Source: a virus (lineage: Duplodnaviria > Caudoviricetes). From it: DNA of 64,000 nucleotides. Position numbers and translations under genes: made by a program. The notes beneath the pieces are model-generated. The model was not told where the DNA came from and ran no database searches. It saw only the letters and a program-made list of their open reading frames with translations. Of the stretch, positions 2,791 to 63,224 are shown one piece after another. Each line of letters opens with the position of its first letter. Within the stretch, counting starts at the first letter, position 1. The stretch covers positions 13,533 to 77,532 of the IMG/VR virus record IMGVR_UViG_3300037424_001630; one strand, written 5' to 3'.

Positions 2791-2976
2791 ATGCTGACCC
2801 GGACGTGTAAGCCTCTGCTCTGCCGCCTCGGCCTGCACCACTTCTGCGTCGAGCTCAGGCGCACTCCCGTGTACGTGCGGGGGTGGTTCTGCACCCAGGA
2901 GCGCTACCGATACGCGAGGTACCTCGTCCAGTGCTGCAGGTGCTCGACTCAGAGCACCAGGGAGCGGTTCATCTAA
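2791..2976 (+). CDS. small Zn-binding protein (C-x-x-G-x-H ... C-x-x-C, DUF1660-like)
   Basis: SD GGAGG; LLCRLGLH...QCCRCS. Confidence 0.6.
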   Translation: MLTRTCKPLLCRLGLHHFCVELRRTPVYVRGWFCTQERYRYARYLVQCCRCSTQSTRERFI

Positions 2977-3004
2977 CCCGGACACCCTCCGCCCCCCACT
3001 TCTC

Positions 3005-8047: not shown

Positions 8048-8916
8048 TGGCGCCGCAGACGGCTGACGGCGGCTGGCTGCTCGACGACCGCGAGGCGCCG
8101 CGCTATGGGCTCGGCGTCGAGAAGGCGTTCGATGAGAGCGAGCACCCTCGAGACGAGCAGGGCCAGTGGACCGAGGGCGGTCCGGCGGCGGGGGTCAAGC
8201 GCCTCAAGCTTGCCGACGACGCCGTCGCCGCTGTCGGGGGCACGCCGGGCGCGAAGATCACCGAGGACGGCATCGAGGTCGACGTCTCCCGCTACCAGGA
8301 CCCCGGGCAGTCCGGCGAGCTGTCCGTGCGCACGGGCGTCTTCTTCCTGCCTGAGCACAAGTCGCCGTGGGGGCGCCACTATACGGGGAAGCCCGCCGAG
8401 TCGGGGGGATACGGCGGCACCATGAAGATCGAGGGGCGCGTGACGCTGCGGAACCCGTTCGTGGTGCGGGCGAGCACCGGCGGGAACGCGGTGGTGAAGG
8501 CGTACGACGCGGTCGAGGGGAAGGGCGCGTATGAGAGGATGCGGACGGACGTGTTGCAGCACGCGATGCCCCGCTTGTGGGGGGAGCAAGCTCGCGGTTC
8601 GTCTGACGACCTCGAGCGGAGAGTGCGCGGCGTCCTGGAAAAGTACGGCGGCGAGCCGGGGATGGCCGCCGCGATCATCGAGCACAGCGGGAAGGGCAAC
8701 CTGCACGCGTACGCGATCCAGGAGCACATCGCCGCGCACGCGCTGAGGAAGGCGGGCTACGACTCCGTGCTGGGGTACTCGAAGCACAAGGGGCAGCCGC
8801 GCCTGGCCGAGGTGTTCGACCTCACGCAGACGCACTACCCGGACCCGTTCAAGAAGGGGTGGGCGGAGAAGGCGATCGACCCGGCCGAGTGGACCGCGGA
8901 GGAGGAGATCATCTGA
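8047..8916 (+). CDS. polyvalent protein 2 (~289 aa): ART-PolyVal-like domain
   Basis: TGATG coupling at 8045-8049; VEK+PRD tag; GVFF...YG...VTLRNPFVV...AGYDSV pattern. Confidence 0.75.
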   Translation: MAPQTADGGWLLDDREAPRYGLGVEKAFDESEHPRDEQGQWTEGGPAAGVKRLKLADDAVAAVGGTPGAKITEDGIEVDVSRYQDPGQSGELSVRTGVFFLPEHKSPWGRHYTGKPAESGGYGGTMKIEGRVTLRNPFVVRASTGGNAVVKAYDAVEGKGAYERMRTDVLQHAMPRLWGEQARGSSDDLERRVRGVLEKYGGEPGMAAAIIEHSGKGNLHAYAIQEHIAAHALRKAGYDSVLGYSKHKGQPRLAEVFDLTQTHYPDPFKKGWAEKAIDPAEWTAEEEII

Positions 8917-54626: not shown

Positions 54627-55679
54627 ATGGCGCACGAGATCAGCATCAACGCGCAGGGCAAGGCAGAGATCGCGTACAGCGGCGAGACTCCGTGGCACGG
54701 GCTGGGCACGCGGGTCGAAGGATTGCAGACGGCGCAGGACATCATCAAGGCGGCGGGGCTGGAGTGGTCGGTGGGGCTGGAGCCCGTCTCGCTGTCGAGC
54801 TCGTCGCCCTTCGCTGACATCGAGGGCTACCGCGCCATCGTGCGGCAGGACAACCGGAAGGTGTTCGGCATCACCAGCGACCGCTACGTGCCGATCCAGA
54901 ACGTCCAGGCAGCGGACGTGCTCGACGCTCTGGTGACGGAGGGCGGCGCCCACGTGGAGGTGGCCGGCGCGCTCTTCGAGGGTCGGCGGTGCTGGGCGCT
55001 CGCGCACATCCCCCAGGACTTCGAGGTGGTCCGGGGCGACCTGGTGAAACCCTACGTCCTGCTCGCCTGGGGACACGACGGCAAGCACGGGCTCGCGGCG
55101 AAGCTGACCCCCATCCGGGTGGTCTGCAACAACACGCTCACCGCGGCGGGACTCGGCGGCGGGCAGAAGTGGAGCGAGAGCGCGGACGTGTACGTGCGCC
55201 ACACGGGTGACGCGAAGATTCACGTCGAGGCGGCGCAGAAGGCGCTCGGGCTCGTGCGCAAGCAGGTGGCGCAGACGGCGGAGGCGTACCTGGCTCTGGC
55301 GGGCAGGGGGCTGGGAGTCGTCGAGGCCAAGGACTACTTCGCCGGCGTGTTCCCGGTCCCGGACGAGTCCATCGTGTTGGGACCCAAGGACGAGGAGCCG
55401 AACGCCAGCGTCCACGCCGAGCTCTACGAGGCGAAGCTGGCGCGCTGGAACGAGCACCAGGCGAAGCTGCTCGCGCTCTACGAGCAGGGTGCCGGGCACT
55501 CCTTCGCGGCCGGGACCGCCTGGGGCGCCTACAACGCGGTCACGGAGTGGGCCGACCACGTGTACCCCGTGAAGGCGAACGGCGAGGTGTCGGCGACCCG
55601 CCAGCAGTCGGTGCTCTTCGGGCAGTACGCGGAGATCAAGGGTCGGGCGCTGACCTCGGCCCTCGCGCTGGTCGGATAG
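54627..55679 (+). CDS. DUF932 family phage/plasmid protein
   Basis: AYSGETPWHGLG...PIQN...AGAL.EGRR...HDGK...TPIRVVCNNT...RHT...TAWGAYNAVTEWADH. Confidence 0.92.
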   Translation: MAHEISINAQGKAEIAYSGETPWHGLGTRVEGLQTAQDIIKAAGLEWSVGLEPVSLSSSSPFADIEGYRAIVRQDNRKVFGITSDRYVPIQNVQAADVLDALVTEGGAHVEVAGALFEGRRCWALAHIPQDFEVVRGDLVKPYVLLAWGHDGKHGLAAKLTPIRVVCNNTLTAAGLGGGQKWSESADVYVRHTGDAKIHVEAAQKALGLVRKQVAQTAEAYLALAGRGLGVVEAKDYFAGVFPVPDESIVLGPKDEEPNASVHAELYEAKLARWNEHQAKLLALYEQGAGHSFAAGTAWGAYNAVTEWADHVYPVKANGEVSATRQQSVLFGQYAEIKGRALTSALALVG

Positions 55680-55691
55680 GTTCGGTGAGGG

Positions 55692-55710
55692 CGGCGCCCC
55701 CGGGGCGCCG
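55692..55710. repeat. perfect palindrome / hairpin after DUF932
   Basis: CGGCGCCCC-C-GGGGCGCCG. Confidence 0.6.
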
Positions 55711-55760
55711 TAAACCGCAGGCCGGGTCCCAAGCCCCGGCGGAGGAGGAGGAGGAGCGAC

Positions 55761-56177
55761 ATGGTCGAAAAGGTGGAGCGCCCAACTTGTTCTAAGACGG
55801 TGTTCCGGGGGTCCAGCTGGCGTACCAAGTGCTCGAACGGCGCCGTCGTCGAGCGGTCCGTCGTGACTCTCGGACCATCGGCGCAGCGCTACAACGAGGA
55901 GACCTTCGAGTTCGTCGATGGTCCCCCCGCGAGGAGAACGGTCACGAGGTGGTTCTGCGGCGTGCACGACCCGGAGAGGGTGTCGGCGCGAGAGGTGGAG
56001 AAGCAGGCGAAGTGGGTGGCGGAGCGTGAGCGGGTGGACCGGATCTGCGCGTCCACCAGGGACCTCTGCGTGCGCCTCGGCTGCGGGCACGTCCACTTCA
56101 GTCCGCACGGCGTGACCGGCAACGTCGTCCTCGAGCGGCACGACGTCGAGAAGATCCTCAAGGAGCTGGGGCGGTGA
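55761..56177 (+). CDS. hypothetical Cys/His-containing early protein
   Basis: SD GGAGGAGG; C...C...FCGVHDP. Confidence 0.7.
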   Translation: MVEKVERPTCSKTVFRGSSWRTKCSNGAVVERSVVTLGPSAQRYNEETFEFVDGPPARRTVTRWFCGVHDPERVSAREVEKQAKWVAERERVDRICASTRDLCVRLGCGHVHFSPHGVTGNVVLERHDVEKILKELGR

Positions 56178-60547: not shown

Positions 60548-60972
60548 GCAGCGTACTCAAGGAATGGGTCGCTCTGGCTCCGTGGAAGTGCCAGAGCATC
60601 CTCCTATCAGGGCTCCGCGGTCCCGACACGTCTCTGTGCCCTCGGGTGAAGGAGGTCTCTCGGTGGATCCGGAAGGTGTCGCAGAACGACGCCGACCCGA
60701 GCCAGAGCTACATGGCTCCCGCCAAGCTGCCGGAGCCGGAGGACTTGGAGAAGGAGCTGGAGTTCTCGACGTGCCACTTCGTCCACCACTTCGCCGACGC
60801 CCTGCGCGTGGTCTCCATCTATTATTTTGCTGGCACCTGGGACGACACTCACGGGGTTCGGAAGTACGCGCGCCGGGTCCACGACTATATCGCCGACGAG
60901 CTGTTTCACTTCGTGCCTGAGAGCGACTTTGTCTTTAGGGATCGCCACCGGGACAGGGTCGAGCACCAGTGA
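60544..60972 (+). CDS. conserved phage hypothetical protein
   Basis: SVL..WV...Q..LL.GLRGPD...RWIR...HFVHH; coupled on both sides. Confidence 0.7.
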   Translation: MSSVLKEWVALAPWKCQSILLSGLRGPDTSLCPRVKEVSRWIRKVSQNDADPSQSYMAPAKLPEPEDLEKELEFSTCHFVHHFADALRVVSIYYFAGTWDDTHGVRKYARRVHDYIADELFHFVPESDFVFRDRHRDRVEHQ

Positions 60973-62582
60973 AAGTCGCCGACTACATGCGCGACGTCCT
61001 GGTGCCGGCGAACGTGGCCGTCTCCGCGATCCAGCGCAACGGGCTCCCGATCGACCTCGCCCACCTGCGCGCGACCCGCGAGGCGTGGGAGGGGGAGATC
61101 AGGGACATGGAGCGGATGGTCGAGGGCGAGGCCGCTCGCGTCGGGACGCCGTTCAAGTACTCGGCGGACCACGGGGTGCACCCGCCGTACATCGCCAAGT
61201 TCCTATTCGAGGGCCTGGGGCTGGACCCCGCCGGCCCGGACGGCAAGTCGAAGAAGTCGCCGAAGACGGGCCGGCTGTCGACGGACGCCGAGTCCCTGGC
61301 GATGCACGCGTCGGTGAAGGTGCCGCGCCCGGGCGACCACCCGGTAGTCTCGGCGATCCTGAAGATCCGGTCGCTCGCGAAGGGGGTCGGGACGTACCTG
61401 GACGCGTTCGAGCGGTCGGTGCGTCCGGACGGCCGTTGCCATCCGAAGTACAACTGGGCGCTGCGGACCGCCCGCCTGTCCGCGGAGGACCCGCCCGTCC
61501 ACCAGATCCCCGAGCACTCCGACCAGGTCGTCGCCGACGGCGTCAAGGCGTGCATCGTCCCCCGCGTGAGCCCTGCCCCCGACCGCGACTCGTGGGATCC
61601 GAGGGTGCACGGCTCCGTCGGGCGCTGGGACATCGTCGGGGCAGAAGCCAGCGTTCGAGCCGCCATGCTGACCGACCACTGGGGCGTGCGCGACCCGGTG
61701 GCGTGGGAGTACCTCCGGCAGGGGAAGGACATCCACTCTAAGACCGCGAGCCTGCTCTACGGCGTCCCCGAGGGGACGTACAAGAAGGGCAGCCGCGAGC
61801 GCGACGCCGTCGCCAAGCCGATCTTCTTCGCCAAGCAGTTCGGCGCCAAGTGGAGGCTGGTCCAGCACCAGATGTGGGACGACGCGCGCGTGTGGATCCC
61901 CGACGACGAGATTCGCCAGATGGACGACAGGTTCAACGCCGGGTACACCGGGCTCGTCGAGCTCTACGCGATTGACAAGATCCTCCTCGGCGAGCGGATG
62001 GACTCCGAGGGGCTGAGCTGGTGCGACGACCCGTATGGGCGCCGCCGGGCGATCCAGGTGCCCCGCGCCGCTGTGGCGCGCTTCCGCAACGGCCGGTGGA
62101 ACGAGGAGTACATACAGGACTACGCGCTGCAGAAGGCGCTGAACCACGCCTTCCACGTGGCCGCCAACACGCCGACGCAGAGCTGCAACGCGTCGGACGC
62201 GGCGTGGATGCTCGCGCTGTGTCACCTGGGGGAGTACGTCGAGCTCCGAGTCCCCCCGATGTGGGAGCGCGGCGGGATACCGTTCCCGGAGGCGGCCGAT
62301 TGGCAGCTCGACGGGGGACCTGGTCCCGGCGGGAAGCCGTTCCAGGCGTGGATGACGAACACGGTCCACGACTCGGGGTGGTTCGACTGCGCCCCCGGCC
62401 ACTGGCTCGAGGCCGCCGCGAAGGTGTTCTGGCGGCGCTGCCAGGCCGTCCCCCTGGACTGGCGTCTGGAGGCTGACGTGCCGTACCGCATAGAGCTGAA
62501 GGTGGGTCCCGACCAGGCGCACCTGCGCCCGTACAACTCGGTGGCGAAGATTTTTGGACTAGAACCAGTACCCGAGCGCTAG
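60969..62582 (+). CDS. polA: family A DNA polymerase, polymerase domain (split gene, part 2)
   Basis: GRLSTD, TARLSAEDPPVHQIP, motif A DIVGAE, DIH, motif B AKPIFFAKQFG, ANTPTQS, motif C VHDS. Confidence 0.9.
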   Translation: MKVADYMRDVLVPANVAVSAIQRNGLPIDLAHLRATREAWEGEIRDMERMVEGEAARVGTPFKYSADHGVHPPYIAKFLFEGLGLDPAGPDGKSKKSPKTGRLSTDAESLAMHASVKVPRPGDHPVVSAILKIRSLAKGVGTYLDAFERSVRPDGRCHPKYNWALRTARLSAEDPPVHQIPEHSDQVVADGVKACIVPRVSPAPDRDSWDPRVHGSVGRWDIVGAEASVRAAMLTDHWGVRDPVAWEYLRQGKDIHSKTASLLYGVPEGTYKKGSRERDAVAKPIFFAKQFGAKWRLVQHQMWDDARVWIPDDEIRQMDDRFNAGYTGLVELYAIDKILLGERMDSEGLSWCDDPYGRRRAIQVPRAAVARFRNGRWNEEYIQDYALQKALNHAFHVAANTPTQSCNASDAAWMLALCHLGEYVELRVPPMWERGGIPFPEAADWQLDGGPGPGGKPFQAWMTNTVHDSGWFDCAPGHWLEAAAKVFWRRCQAVPLDWRLEADVPYRIELKVGPDQAHLRPYNSVAKIFGLEPVPER

Positions 62583-62636
62583 GGGGATATGAAGGTCATG
62601 GCGATCAAGACAGGCGGTTCCGACGCGAAGCTTCCT

Positions 62637-62691
62637 GGGGGAGAGCCCGCGGGGGCTTCCGGTGCCGGTTCGAGTCCGGCCTCCTCCACCA
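62637..62691 (+). ncRNA. alanine-identity tRNA-like / tmRNA TLD-like element (may extend 5' to 62582)
   Basis: GGGGGAG pairs with CTCCTCC (G3.U70); T arm GCCGG-TTCGAGT-CCGGC; A73; CCA. Confidence 0.65.
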
Positions 62692-62696
62692 ATCTG

Positions 62697-63224
62697 ATGC
62701 GGGTGACGGTGCAGGTCGGCGAGCGCCGGTTCGACGAGGACCTCGCGGCGCAGGCTTTCATCGCTCCAGACCTGGCCGGGATCGACCGGGCGCTGGAGAC
62801 CGGCCCGAGCCGCTTCGCCGAGTGGGCGATGCTGCACGCGCTGGCCCGCACCGAGCACGACGAGATCAAGGGGCAGCTCGCCGTGGTCGAGACGGACATC
62901 AAGGAGATCGAGGCGTTGGTCTACCTGCAGATCACCGACGCGGCGATGTCCGCCGGCGGCAAGGCTCCGACGATCCCGGTAATCCAGGCGATGGTGGAGG
63001 TCGCCCCCCGCCGGCTCGAGGTCGTGAAGAGGAAGCAAGCCCTCGAGGCTGACCTCCGGGCCGCGGCAGACCGGGTGCGAGTTCTGGACGTCGGCCGGGA
63101 GACCATGAAGGACCGGAAGGATTACGTGATCGAGCGTGCCCGGGACGCGCGCCAGGAGATGCAGTCGAAGATGGTGGTGCGCACGCCGGAGGAGCTCGCC
63201 CAGTTCCGGCCCGGGGGGCGCTGA
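62697..63224 (+). CDS. UvsY-like recombination mediator
   Basis: Coiled-coil pattern; adjacent to gp32-like SSB. Start could be ATG 62589, but that extension is low-complexity and covers the RNA element. Confidence 0.55.
   Translation: MRVTVQVGERRFDEDLAAQAFIAPDLAGIDRALETGPSRFAEWAMLHALARTEHDEIKGQLAVVETDIKEIEALVYLQITDAAMSAGGKAPTIPVIQAMVEVAPRRLEVVKRKQALEADLRAAADRVRVLDVGRETMKDRKDYVIERARDARQEMQSKMVVRTPEELAQFRPGGR

Follow-up and report, generated by a model that had tools for sequence, protein, structure and literature searches.

Positions 62637 to 62691 of the window (the 64,000-nucleotide stretch of phage DNA analyzed here) hold a 55-nt alanine-type tRNA-like top half, as seen on inspection of the sequence. 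Our analysis suggests that this is a mini-tmRNA-type module inserted in frame into the gene downstream of the DNA polymerase gene, and we tentatively consider it now most likely to be a translated passenger rather than a working RNA gene. The original prediction described the motif correctly, in that all of its sequence statements on the 55-nt form, including the coordinates, hold. The parts of the module are as follows:

62637-62643, plus strand: acceptor 5' strand GGGGGAG (G1 to G7), which pairs with 62681-62687 and gives G3.U70
62644-62657, plus strand: 5-bp hairpin of the minimum free energy (MFE) fold in the place of the D arm (strands 62644-62648 and 62653-62657), with a 4-nt G-rich loop (62649-62652)
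62658-62663, plus strand: 6-nt spacer that replaces the anticodon arm and variable loop
62664-62680, plus strand: T arm with five Watson-Crick pairs and the canonical 7-nt T loop TTCGAGT
62681-62691, plus strand: acceptor 3' strand CTCCTCC (62681-62687), A73 (62688) and encoded CCA (62689-62691)

The alanine identity set is complete in this form, as had been proposed: the 7-bp acceptor stem carries G3.U70 together with A73, and the anticodon arm is absent. All helices are perfect, only 20 nt (the 5-bp hairpin and the 6-nt spacer) separate the acceptor from the T stem, and the module leaves no room for a tag frame, in keeping with the earlier statement that none is visible. We note that an encoded CCA is also found in both real tRNA genes of this phage. 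The MFE structure of the 55-mer is exactly the Y shape given above, which makes up 68% of the ensemble. The folding energy is no better than that of shuffled sequences, with z-scores of -0.83 for the 55-mer, +0.18 for 110 nt and +1.5 for 146 nt, and the acceptor stem is absent from the MFE structure when the module is folded in 146 nt of context.

While the module had been placed between polA and the next gene, it in fact lies inside an open reading frame (62589 or 62598 to 63224), the surroundings being arranged as follows:

60969-62582, plus strand: family A DNA polymerase gene, polymerase part (PF00476, 66 bits; phrog_17), with its stop codon TAG at 62580-62582
62582-62587, plus strand: Shine-Dalgarno-like GGGGGA for ATG 62598, the same motif standing before ATG-GCG in the relative L009
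62598-63224, plus strand: downstream gene, 208 amino acids from the ancestral start, with ATG 62589 also in frame
62598-62630, plus strand: ancestral N-terminal tail of 11 codons, with the pattern K-T-x-x-S-D-x-K as in the relatives L356 and L358
62631-62693, plus strand: lineage-specific in-frame insertion of 60-63 nt (21 codons), found in no relative, its borders being uncertain by a few bases
62694-62699, plus strand: conserved Leu-Met codons that open the family core

In the relatives, polA likewise precedes the homologues of the downstream gene, and relatives other than L009 have AGGAG-type sites at the position equivalent to 62582-62587. The label "UvsY-like" given to this gene is unsupported, as it matches no Pfam family and only unnamed PHROGs. 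The IMG gene call covers only 62697-63224; ATG 62697 has no Shine-Dalgarno sequence and lies 5 nt past the CCA. The Leu before the core Met is kept in at least 90% of 20 homologues, with synonymous variation, and translation of the homologues therefore begins upstream of the core. Such a conserved N-terminal extension, which the original prediction had itself named as an adverse sign, would count against a free-standing gene.

The homology of the ancestral tail was assessed by codon-by-codon comparison and MAFFT alignment, where a single 60-nt gap in L356, L357 and L358 lies opposite the insertion (a 21-residue gap in the protein alignment); in the nearest relatives (58-69% identity), the N-terminal tails of this protein have just 7-12 residues. 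The module falls wholly within the insertion, with about 6 flanking bases on the 5' side and about 2 on the 3' side. The insertion is free of stop codons, encodes Gly/Ala/Ser/Pro-rich residues and has a GC3 of 0.62, compared to 0.82 in the ancestral tail and a genome mean of 0.93, a value that just 1.2% of 21-codon windows in confident genes reach. A candidate 5-bp target duplication (62628-62632 and 62691-62695, 4/5 identical) is too weak to use.

This arrangement is part of what leads us to favor a passenger: the window keeps the Shine-Dalgarno sequence, ATG and K-T-x-x-S-D-x-K of the relatives, followed by one extra block of about 60 nt, and the frame is open from the Shine-Dalgarno-preceded ATG. 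Translation would begin from this ancestral signal at ATG 62598 and continue across the module, adding about 21 Gly/Ala/Ser/Pro-rich residues ahead of the conserved core, which a disordered, length-variable N-terminal tail may tolerate. On this view, a small RNA gene of a phage, or the RNA made from it, would have been captured here recently, and the copy would persist since it neither shifts the frame nor introduces a stop codon. The perfect helices, the completeness from G1 to CCA and the tight flanks are what one would expect if the RNA is under selection, or if the capture was precise and happened very recently.

The original prediction had also offered a 110-nt alternative fold, built on GGGGGAT (62582-62588) and a D-loop-like decamer (62615-62624), both of which are present in the sequence. 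We reject this fold because its 5' strand is the Shine-Dalgarno sequence of the ancestral start, shared with L009, and its "tmRNA-like D-loop" consists of the ancestral Ser-Asp codons. The D-loop look-alike lies upstream of the 5' strand of the 55-nt form, which is itself without a D-loop analogue.

Covariation, which had been suggested as a check, provides no compensatory-change support, in that no relative fetched carries the module, the T-arm motif being absent from the equivalent site in all of them (43-69% protein identity). Three copies of this phage were recovered, 100% identical to one another, and the module is invariant among them, while four DNA sequencing runs contained only identical fragments of this phage and foreign tRNA or tmRNA ends. 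A search of viral contigs for relatives using polA and the downstream protein found none, and tblastn against 50,697 phage records gave no match.

The module stays below the Rfam cut-offs. ARAGORN did not call it as a tRNA or tmRNA, and the Rfam tRNA model RF00005 gives 23.4 bits (E = 6e-4 per genome), below the 29-bit gathering cut-off, with both the anticodon arm and the standard D arm of a canonical tRNA missing. The Rfam tmRNA model RF00023 gives 31.4 bits with its whole interior, including the pseudoknots and tag frame, deleted, against a cut-off of 47; we do not rely on the tiny E-value of this match, as the search control also matches in archaea, which are without tmRNA. With cmscan, the same bases score only 13.6 bits against tmRNA, as a truncated match, in which 62649-62691 aligns to the consensus tmRNA 3' end, including the 3' strand of helix P2a, which the spacer at 62658-62663 and the preceding bases resemble. 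The mitochondrial mini tmRNA model RF02544 gave no match at E-values up to 10. A permuted tmRNA was likewise considered and rejected, since the beta_tmRNA and tmRNA_permuted matches (17-19 bits) rely on the downstream 'GGTTCGAC', which corresponds to conserved Arg-Arg-Phe-Asp-Glu-Asp codons found in all homologues.

The alignment to the tmRNA 3' end also bears on the suggestion that the module is an attP core or recombination scar, in which the 3' end of a host tmRNA or tRNA-Ala was copied and the 5' strand matches by luck. Foreign contigs in the sediment runs match 62658-62691 at ≥80% identity, in at least one foreign record the match stops exactly at the CCA, and tmRNA genes are common integration sites (PMC11915505), all of which speak for this explanation. 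As in phage attP sites, a T arm, 3' acceptor strand and CCA lie within the phage genome; unlike here, such sites have no 5' strand, an adjacent integrase and an exact host match. We searched for tyrosine and serine recombinases (PF00589, PF07508) and found none in the 77.5-kb record (which is about 76% complete), the neighbors here and in the relatives are polA, gp32-like and RecA genes with no integrase, and none of the tRNAs or tmRNAs of 185,579 species contains the 22-mer. The suggestion is thus left without support, from either an integrase in the record or a host tRNA or tmRNA match, and would moreover leave the matching 5' strand and hairpin unexplained; we regard it as highly improbable.

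Pure coincidence, in which a low-complexity coding stretch (Gly-Ser-Ser-Pro-Ala-Ser-Ser) happens to resemble a tRNA top half, was the explanation favored at first, on the grounds of the generic rate, the fold z-scores and the coding frame. A generic T arm followed by NCCA and accompanied by a matching 5' strand should turn up about 3e-4 times in a 64-kb window with this codon usage, and thus tens of times over ~250,000 windows; in addition, the exact 22-mer occurs twice in ordinary bacterial coding DNA, the z-score of the 55-mer is unremarkable, and the 3' strand partly overlaps codons like those of the Ala-Ser-(Ser/Asn)-Leu tails of the relatives. However, once this acceptor and T-loop type are required, the expectation falls to only about 2e-14 per base, and low-complexity composition does not raise the rate, as 60 Mb of simulated tails contained 0 T arms. 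Furthermore, the motif sits precisely where a lineage-specific insertion with unusual codon usage is found, and its acceptor, its T stem and its pre-T-arm junction can each be found again among natural minis (described below). Coincidence was dropped in light of the specific rate, the natural analogues and the insertion, and we now consider it very unlikely.

The 3' strand of the module recurs unchanged in more than 117 natural viral genes of tRNA, tmRNA or Y-RNA-like type. In viral contigs we found about 24 distinct anticodon-armless alanine-type minis of 58-68 nt, at least 20 of them intergenic, a count that leaves out one read by ARAGORN as part of a tRNA-Glu gene; their acceptor and T-stem pairs are not counted as covariation because the search filter required pairing. 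Those in L250/L343, L239, L298, L350 and L149 combine a 7-bp Ala-type acceptor, a 4-5-bp hairpin with a G-rich loop, a short spacer, a T arm, A73 and often CCA, and are found in GC-rich phage contigs, shortly ahead of a gene start and in the same orientation as that gene. The L250/L343 mini (58 nt, GC 0.71) has the same acceptor-hairpin-T arm layout as the module, and the two are conserved, pair 7-66 showing a compensatory change. The hairpin type at 62644-62657 is matched in L250, L343 and L239, the T stem is identical in L298, and the pre-T-arm junction motif is shared only with L350. In contrast to the module, which is a singleton inside an open reading frame, these minis are intergenic, exceed it by 3-8 nt in length and are followed by a stop codon ahead of the next gene. 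Analogues whose surroundings were examined lie 16-28 nt ahead of start codons and outside coding-like frames; those of L250/L343 precede terminase genes whose start codons, 16 nt downstream, have no Shine-Dalgarno sequence. The mini in L152 scores 57.2 bits, above the tmRNA cut-off, and a protein search for a link of L152 or L149 to this phage found none.

A further comparison is with the minihelices of the Schimmel laboratory, where an acceptor/T-arm minihelix with G3.U70 and A73 is reportedly sufficient for alanylation in vitro; these are synthetic substrates, whereas the module is a putative RNA. The foreign viral contig L002, a YrlA-type Y RNA-like sequence (Rfam RF02553), has an identical 25-nt T arm and 3' strand and the same 5' strand. 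The YrlA order is, however, permuted (T arm, acceptor closed by a loop, D arm), with its ends forming the Ro-binding stem, while the module keeps the usual order and its ends are free; no TROVE/Ro gene is present in the phage, and the YrlA model matched only L002.

The studied counterpart is the TLD-only (CDS-less) tmRNA of mycobacteriophage DS6A (JN698994, 28478-28560), an RNA reported to inhibit host tmRNA (PMC4131195, PMC11915505). Like the module, it is phage-encoded, has a G3.U70 and A73 acceptor and a T arm but no anticodon arm, tag frame or pseudoknots, scores under the Rfam tmRNA cut-off (43.2 bits) and is missed by ARAGORN-type tools. The module shares with the DS6A type, as seen in both DS6A and L152, the 7-bp G3.U70 acceptor, A73 and a T arm joined directly to the 3' strand. 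The DS6A RNA differs in being 83 nt long and intergenic (between gp33 and gp34), and in having both a P2 helix and a D-loop analogue of 12 nt, located 2 nt past the acceptor. A D-loop analogue directly after the acceptor also occurs in L152, L248 and L262, whereas the module has none of the GG..UCGAC type 2-3 nt after its acceptor 5' strand. Where P2 would lie it has the short 5-bp hairpin, at most a candidate counterpart, with 62649-62663 resembling the 3' strand of P2a, and it is not a free-standing intergenic gene.

Given the same origin, the module could instead be an active putative RNA, serving as an alanine-accepting decoy, a message-processing signal or both, a serious possibility that we nevertheless somewhat doubt. 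RNase P would cut 5' of G62637, 3' trimming would halt at the encoded CCA, and the released 55-nt minihelix-plus-hairpin would be charged by AlaRS via G3.U70 and A73. As a decoy, it would act as a weak mini-tmRNA mimic that accepts alanine; as a processing signal, it would split the polA message from a near-leaderless message, 5 nt before ATG 62697. Such activity is consistent with the full alanine identity set, the dominant Y fold, the existence of a recurrent phage class (DS6A, L152 and the compensatory change in L250/L343) and the position of the analogues just upstream of start codons, some of them without a Shine-Dalgarno sequence, and the non-coding-like GC3 of the insertion fits an RNA constraint. 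However, excision would destroy the full-length message because the module lies inside the translated frame. The module also lacks the D-loop analogue, which is the SmpB-binding part in mini-tmRNAs, no SmpB gene is present in the phage, a search for promoter-like or terminator-like sites of the module gave none, no relative has it, and shuffled sequences fold as well, with the acceptor stem lost in the 146-nt MFE structure. From the absence of its own promoter and terminator, of a D-loop analogue and of the module in relatives, we infer that the passenger is to be favored. What counts against the passenger, besides the perfect helices and the complete, tightly flanked module, is that analogues lie near starts that have no Shine-Dalgarno sequence, and that the CCA here ends 5 nt before such a start, ATG 62697, the one chosen by IMG.

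We also consider it possible, if unlikely, that the element is put to dual use, being translated into a linker from uncut messages and otherwise freed by RNase P and 3' processing as an alanine-chargeable 55-nt RNA. Its release would leave a near-leaderless message starting 5 nt before ATG 62697, and, if true, this would amount to tRNA-style operon punctuation yielding two protein isoforms and a decoy RNA. By analogy, the starts without Shine-Dalgarno sequences 16 nt behind the L250/L343 minis hint at punctuation as a general role of the class.

DS6A is the one studied phage from which tag-less mini-tmRNAs are known, and our survey indicates that these RNAs appear to be common yet unannotated in phages. 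The module has the smallest layout among the minis compared, at 55 nt with a hairpin replacing the D-loop analogue, and has a few intergenic analogues in GC-rich phages. Taken as a passenger, it is a copy that entered a protein-coding region in frame and now forms part of its codons. If inert, it would show the mobility of such RNA genes and the turning of structured-RNA DNA into a protein linker, and tRNA-like motifs at the starts of open reading frames call for a comparative check. An active module would exemplify an RNA gene embedded in codons in the sense direction, as well as tRNA-type message processing in a phage.

The window covers bases 13533-77532 of a linear IMG/VR virus record of 77.5 kb (~76% complete, 69% GC), and the element of interest has the following layout:

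62637-62691, plus strand: 55-nt module with a G-rich 7-nt 5' strand, a hairpin, a spacer, a T arm, a 3' strand, A73 and CCA

As read from the sequence, the hairpin (5 bp, 4-nt loop) is followed by a 6-nt spacer and then by the T arm, with 5/5 Watson-Crick pairs and a canonical 7-nt loop, while the 7-nt 3' strand of the acceptor is complementary to the 5' strand, giving G3.U70, with A73 and CCA encoded. RNAfold reproduces the same Y shape exactly for the 55-mer (-29.2 kcal/mol, 68% of the ensemble). Every element originally described at these positions is confirmed. We note that this folding energy is ordinary for a sequence this GC-rich (z -0.83), and that neither the 110-nt nor the 146-nt context is more stable than its shuffles.

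RNA gene finders do not call the module: ARAGORN returned only tRNA-Thr and tRNA-His in this phage, Rfam gave no match at the module at gathering thresholds, and the mitochondrial mini-tmRNA model did not match it. Below threshold, the Rfam tRNA model scores 23.4 bits over 62637-62688, and the tmRNA model 31.4 bits over 62637-62691 with the whole model interior deleted. A permuted tmRNA was rejected, as its weak matches depend on the downstream 'GGTTCGAC', where the protein family has conserved codons for Arg-Phe-Asp. Neither an SmpB gene nor a Ro/TROVE gene was found in the phage. Elsewhere in the window, a type-P5 twister ribozyme match (55684-55738, plus strand; 51.1 bits against a gathering score of 37.6) lies in the 81 nt that separate two plus-strand ORFs (54627-55679; 55761-56177), with a long ribosome-binding site of GGAGGA repeats following closely.

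The T-loop type and 3' strand of the module recur in more than 117 viral stretches, which include genes for tRNA-Ala, tRNA-Tyr, standard and permuted tmRNAs and Y-RNA-like mimics; one viral contig, L002, has 25 bases identical to the module and an identical 5' strand. When the 5' strand was required to lie 10-40 nt ahead of the T loop, such short forms turned up in 29 metagenome and 4 viral stretches, and a broader search of viral sequence yielded 25 different ones of 58-68 nt (~24 if one is excluded that ARAGORN assigns to a tRNA-Glu gene), none of these viral minis being recognized by ARAGORN as a short form. Contigs L152, L248, L262, L254 and L276 carry classical minis consisting of the tRNA-like domain (TLD) only, with a D-loop analogue, and L250, L343, L239, L298 and L149 carry minis with a small hairpin in its place. 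Representative elements are:

L152, 1067-1131: 65-nt TLD-only element in a contig of 65% GC, above the Rfam tmRNA cut-off at 57.2 bits
L250, 9818-9875, and L343, 6825-6882: conserved 58-nt alanine-type, anticodon-armless minis, GC 0.71

The latter two differ by a compensatory acceptor change at pair 7-66 (C-G to U-A), and begin 4-9 nt past the stop codon of the preceding gene, ending 16 nt ahead of a small-terminase start that lacks a Shine-Dalgarno (SD) site. The L149 mini is flanked by two genes, in a GC-rich phage-like contig that carries an endonuclease VII gene. The T stem of L298 is that of the window, and the junction motif before the T arm is shared, among viral stretches, with L350 only. 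The published TLD-only RNA of mycobacteriophage DS6A (PMC4131195; PMC11915505) reaches 43.2 bits when scored in the same way; this RNA lies between genes and has a P2 helix and a D-loop analogue, whereas the module lacks the latter.

Related layouts were also observed. A 67-nt TLD-only family occurs in three metagenome contigs (L148 426-495, L154 and L159), the L148 copy adjoining a tRNA gene. L002 (IMGVR_UViG_3300027842_000016, 8727-8782, minus strand) is YrlA-like (RF02553; 37.7 bits, below cut-off), with a permuted order of T arm, acceptor closed by a 3-4-nt loop, and D arm, followed by an odd tRNA-Met-like gene; this layout recurs in L021, L042, L039 and L110. Apparent permuted (two-piece) tmRNA genes, in the order T arm, 3' strand, CCA, short hairpin, 5' strand and tmRNA-type D-loop motif, occur in viral contigs L026, L029, L025, L048, L028, L031, L087, L095 and L109.

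To estimate the chance rate, 360 Mb were simulated with the codon usage of the window. A T arm followed by N7-N-CCA arises at 2.8e-8 per base (0.0036 per window), and 7-10% of such arms have a 5' partner (≤1 G.U pair, 5-120 nt away); thus, ~3e-4 generic look-alikes are expected per window, which is not rare over some 250,000 windows. The observed combination of acceptor and T-loop type, however, is expected at near 2e-14 per base, a rate left unraised by tail-like amino-acid compositions, and this rate taken together with the abundance of natural genes and minis makes a chance resemblance improbable. By sequence, the module fits best as a putative member or derivative of a phage mini-tmRNA-type RNA class. 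The predicted kind, an alanine-type, mRNA-less tmRNA-like or mini-tRNA module, is partly supported; the predicted setting (intergenic gene, 110-nt fold, attP) is not.

The module lies within the reading frame of ORF 62589-63224, in a gene order (polA, this gene, a gp32-like gene, RecA) that is constant in the window and its relatives. A search of a large protein collection gave 20 homologues (42-68% identity), with no Pfam domain among them. Their conserved core opens Leu-Met-Arg-Val, with Met at ATG 62697 in the window, and the preceding Leu is at least 90% conserved while its codon varies between CTG and CTC; translation in the relatives therefore begins upstream of the core Met. Convincing starts are seen in homologue-bearing contigs L003 (AGGAGA and ATG), L008 (AGGAGG and ATG) and L009 (GGGGGA and ATG-GCG), and those in L005 and L006 are coupled via ATGA. 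The window has GGGGGA at 62582-62587 and then ATG-GCG at 62598; no purine-rich site was found in front of ATG 62697.

In the nearest relatives (58-69% identity), the tails are all just 7-12 residues. Compared codon by codon, the L356 tail agrees with the window's first 11 codons, counted from 62598 (K-T-x-x-S-D-x-K), and L356 then continues directly with Gly-Leu-Met, while the window has 21 extra codons (62631-62693) before Leu-Met. MAFFT opens one 60-nt gap in L356, L357 and L358 opposite this block, which is in frame, is free of stop codons and wholly contains the module (left flank ~6 nt, right flank 2 nt). Third-position GC is 0.62 in the block, 0.82 in the flanking ancestral codons and 0.93 in the core; across 21-codon windows of confident genes the mean is 0.93, and just 1.2% are as low as 0.62. 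From gap position and codon composition together, the module therefore arrived as, or within, an insertion without the codon signature of the genome. Rather than being intergenic, it has an ancestral SD site and start codon upstream. The alternative 110-nt fold is likewise discounted, because its 5' strand coincides with that SD site and ancestral Ser-Asp codons make up its "D-loop" (62615-62624).

This presumably translated frame, the missing D-loop analogue and the absence of the module from all relatives of the gene lead us to lean, tentatively and at just short of an even balance, toward the module being a translated passenger. It is also possible, if somewhat less likely, that it would act as an RNA, as a putative chargeable decoy and/or processing signal: all helices are flawless and both ends complete, CCA is encoded as in the phage's own tRNA genes, the codon usage of the insertion is non-coding-like, and the CCA lies 5 nt ahead of an SD-less ATG, echoing the minis before SD-less starts, but no promoter-like or terminator-like site was found flanking it. 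The three copies of the phage recovered are identical.

An attP site or scar is very improbable. The 77.5-kb record (~76% complete) has no tyrosine or serine recombinase, no integrase neighbors the module in the window or the relatives, and the exact 22-mer matches no tRNA or tmRNA: among 185,579 species only two have it, each within an ordinary protein-coding sequence. These two bacterial genomes (L010 5515-5536; L011 7807-7828) belong to different phyla, and the opposite strand encodes the same octapeptide, Leu-Glu-Glu-Ala-Gly-Leu-Glu-Pro, in both. In sediment DNA runs X2, X4 and X5, depth over 62658-62691 spikes up to ~300 from foreign contigs (≥80% match) that match the T arm and 3' strand only, at least one record ceasing to match at the CCA; the pattern suggests plentiful tmRNA or tRNA 3' ends from other organisms of these sediments. 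The small balance left by these four readings falls to something else.

In contigs L006 and L007 (~2930-3003), the space between polA and the homologue holds a 27-codon hydrophobic mini-ORF with an ATGA overlap with the next start, which makes the spacer after polA a family-wide hot spot for small inserts.
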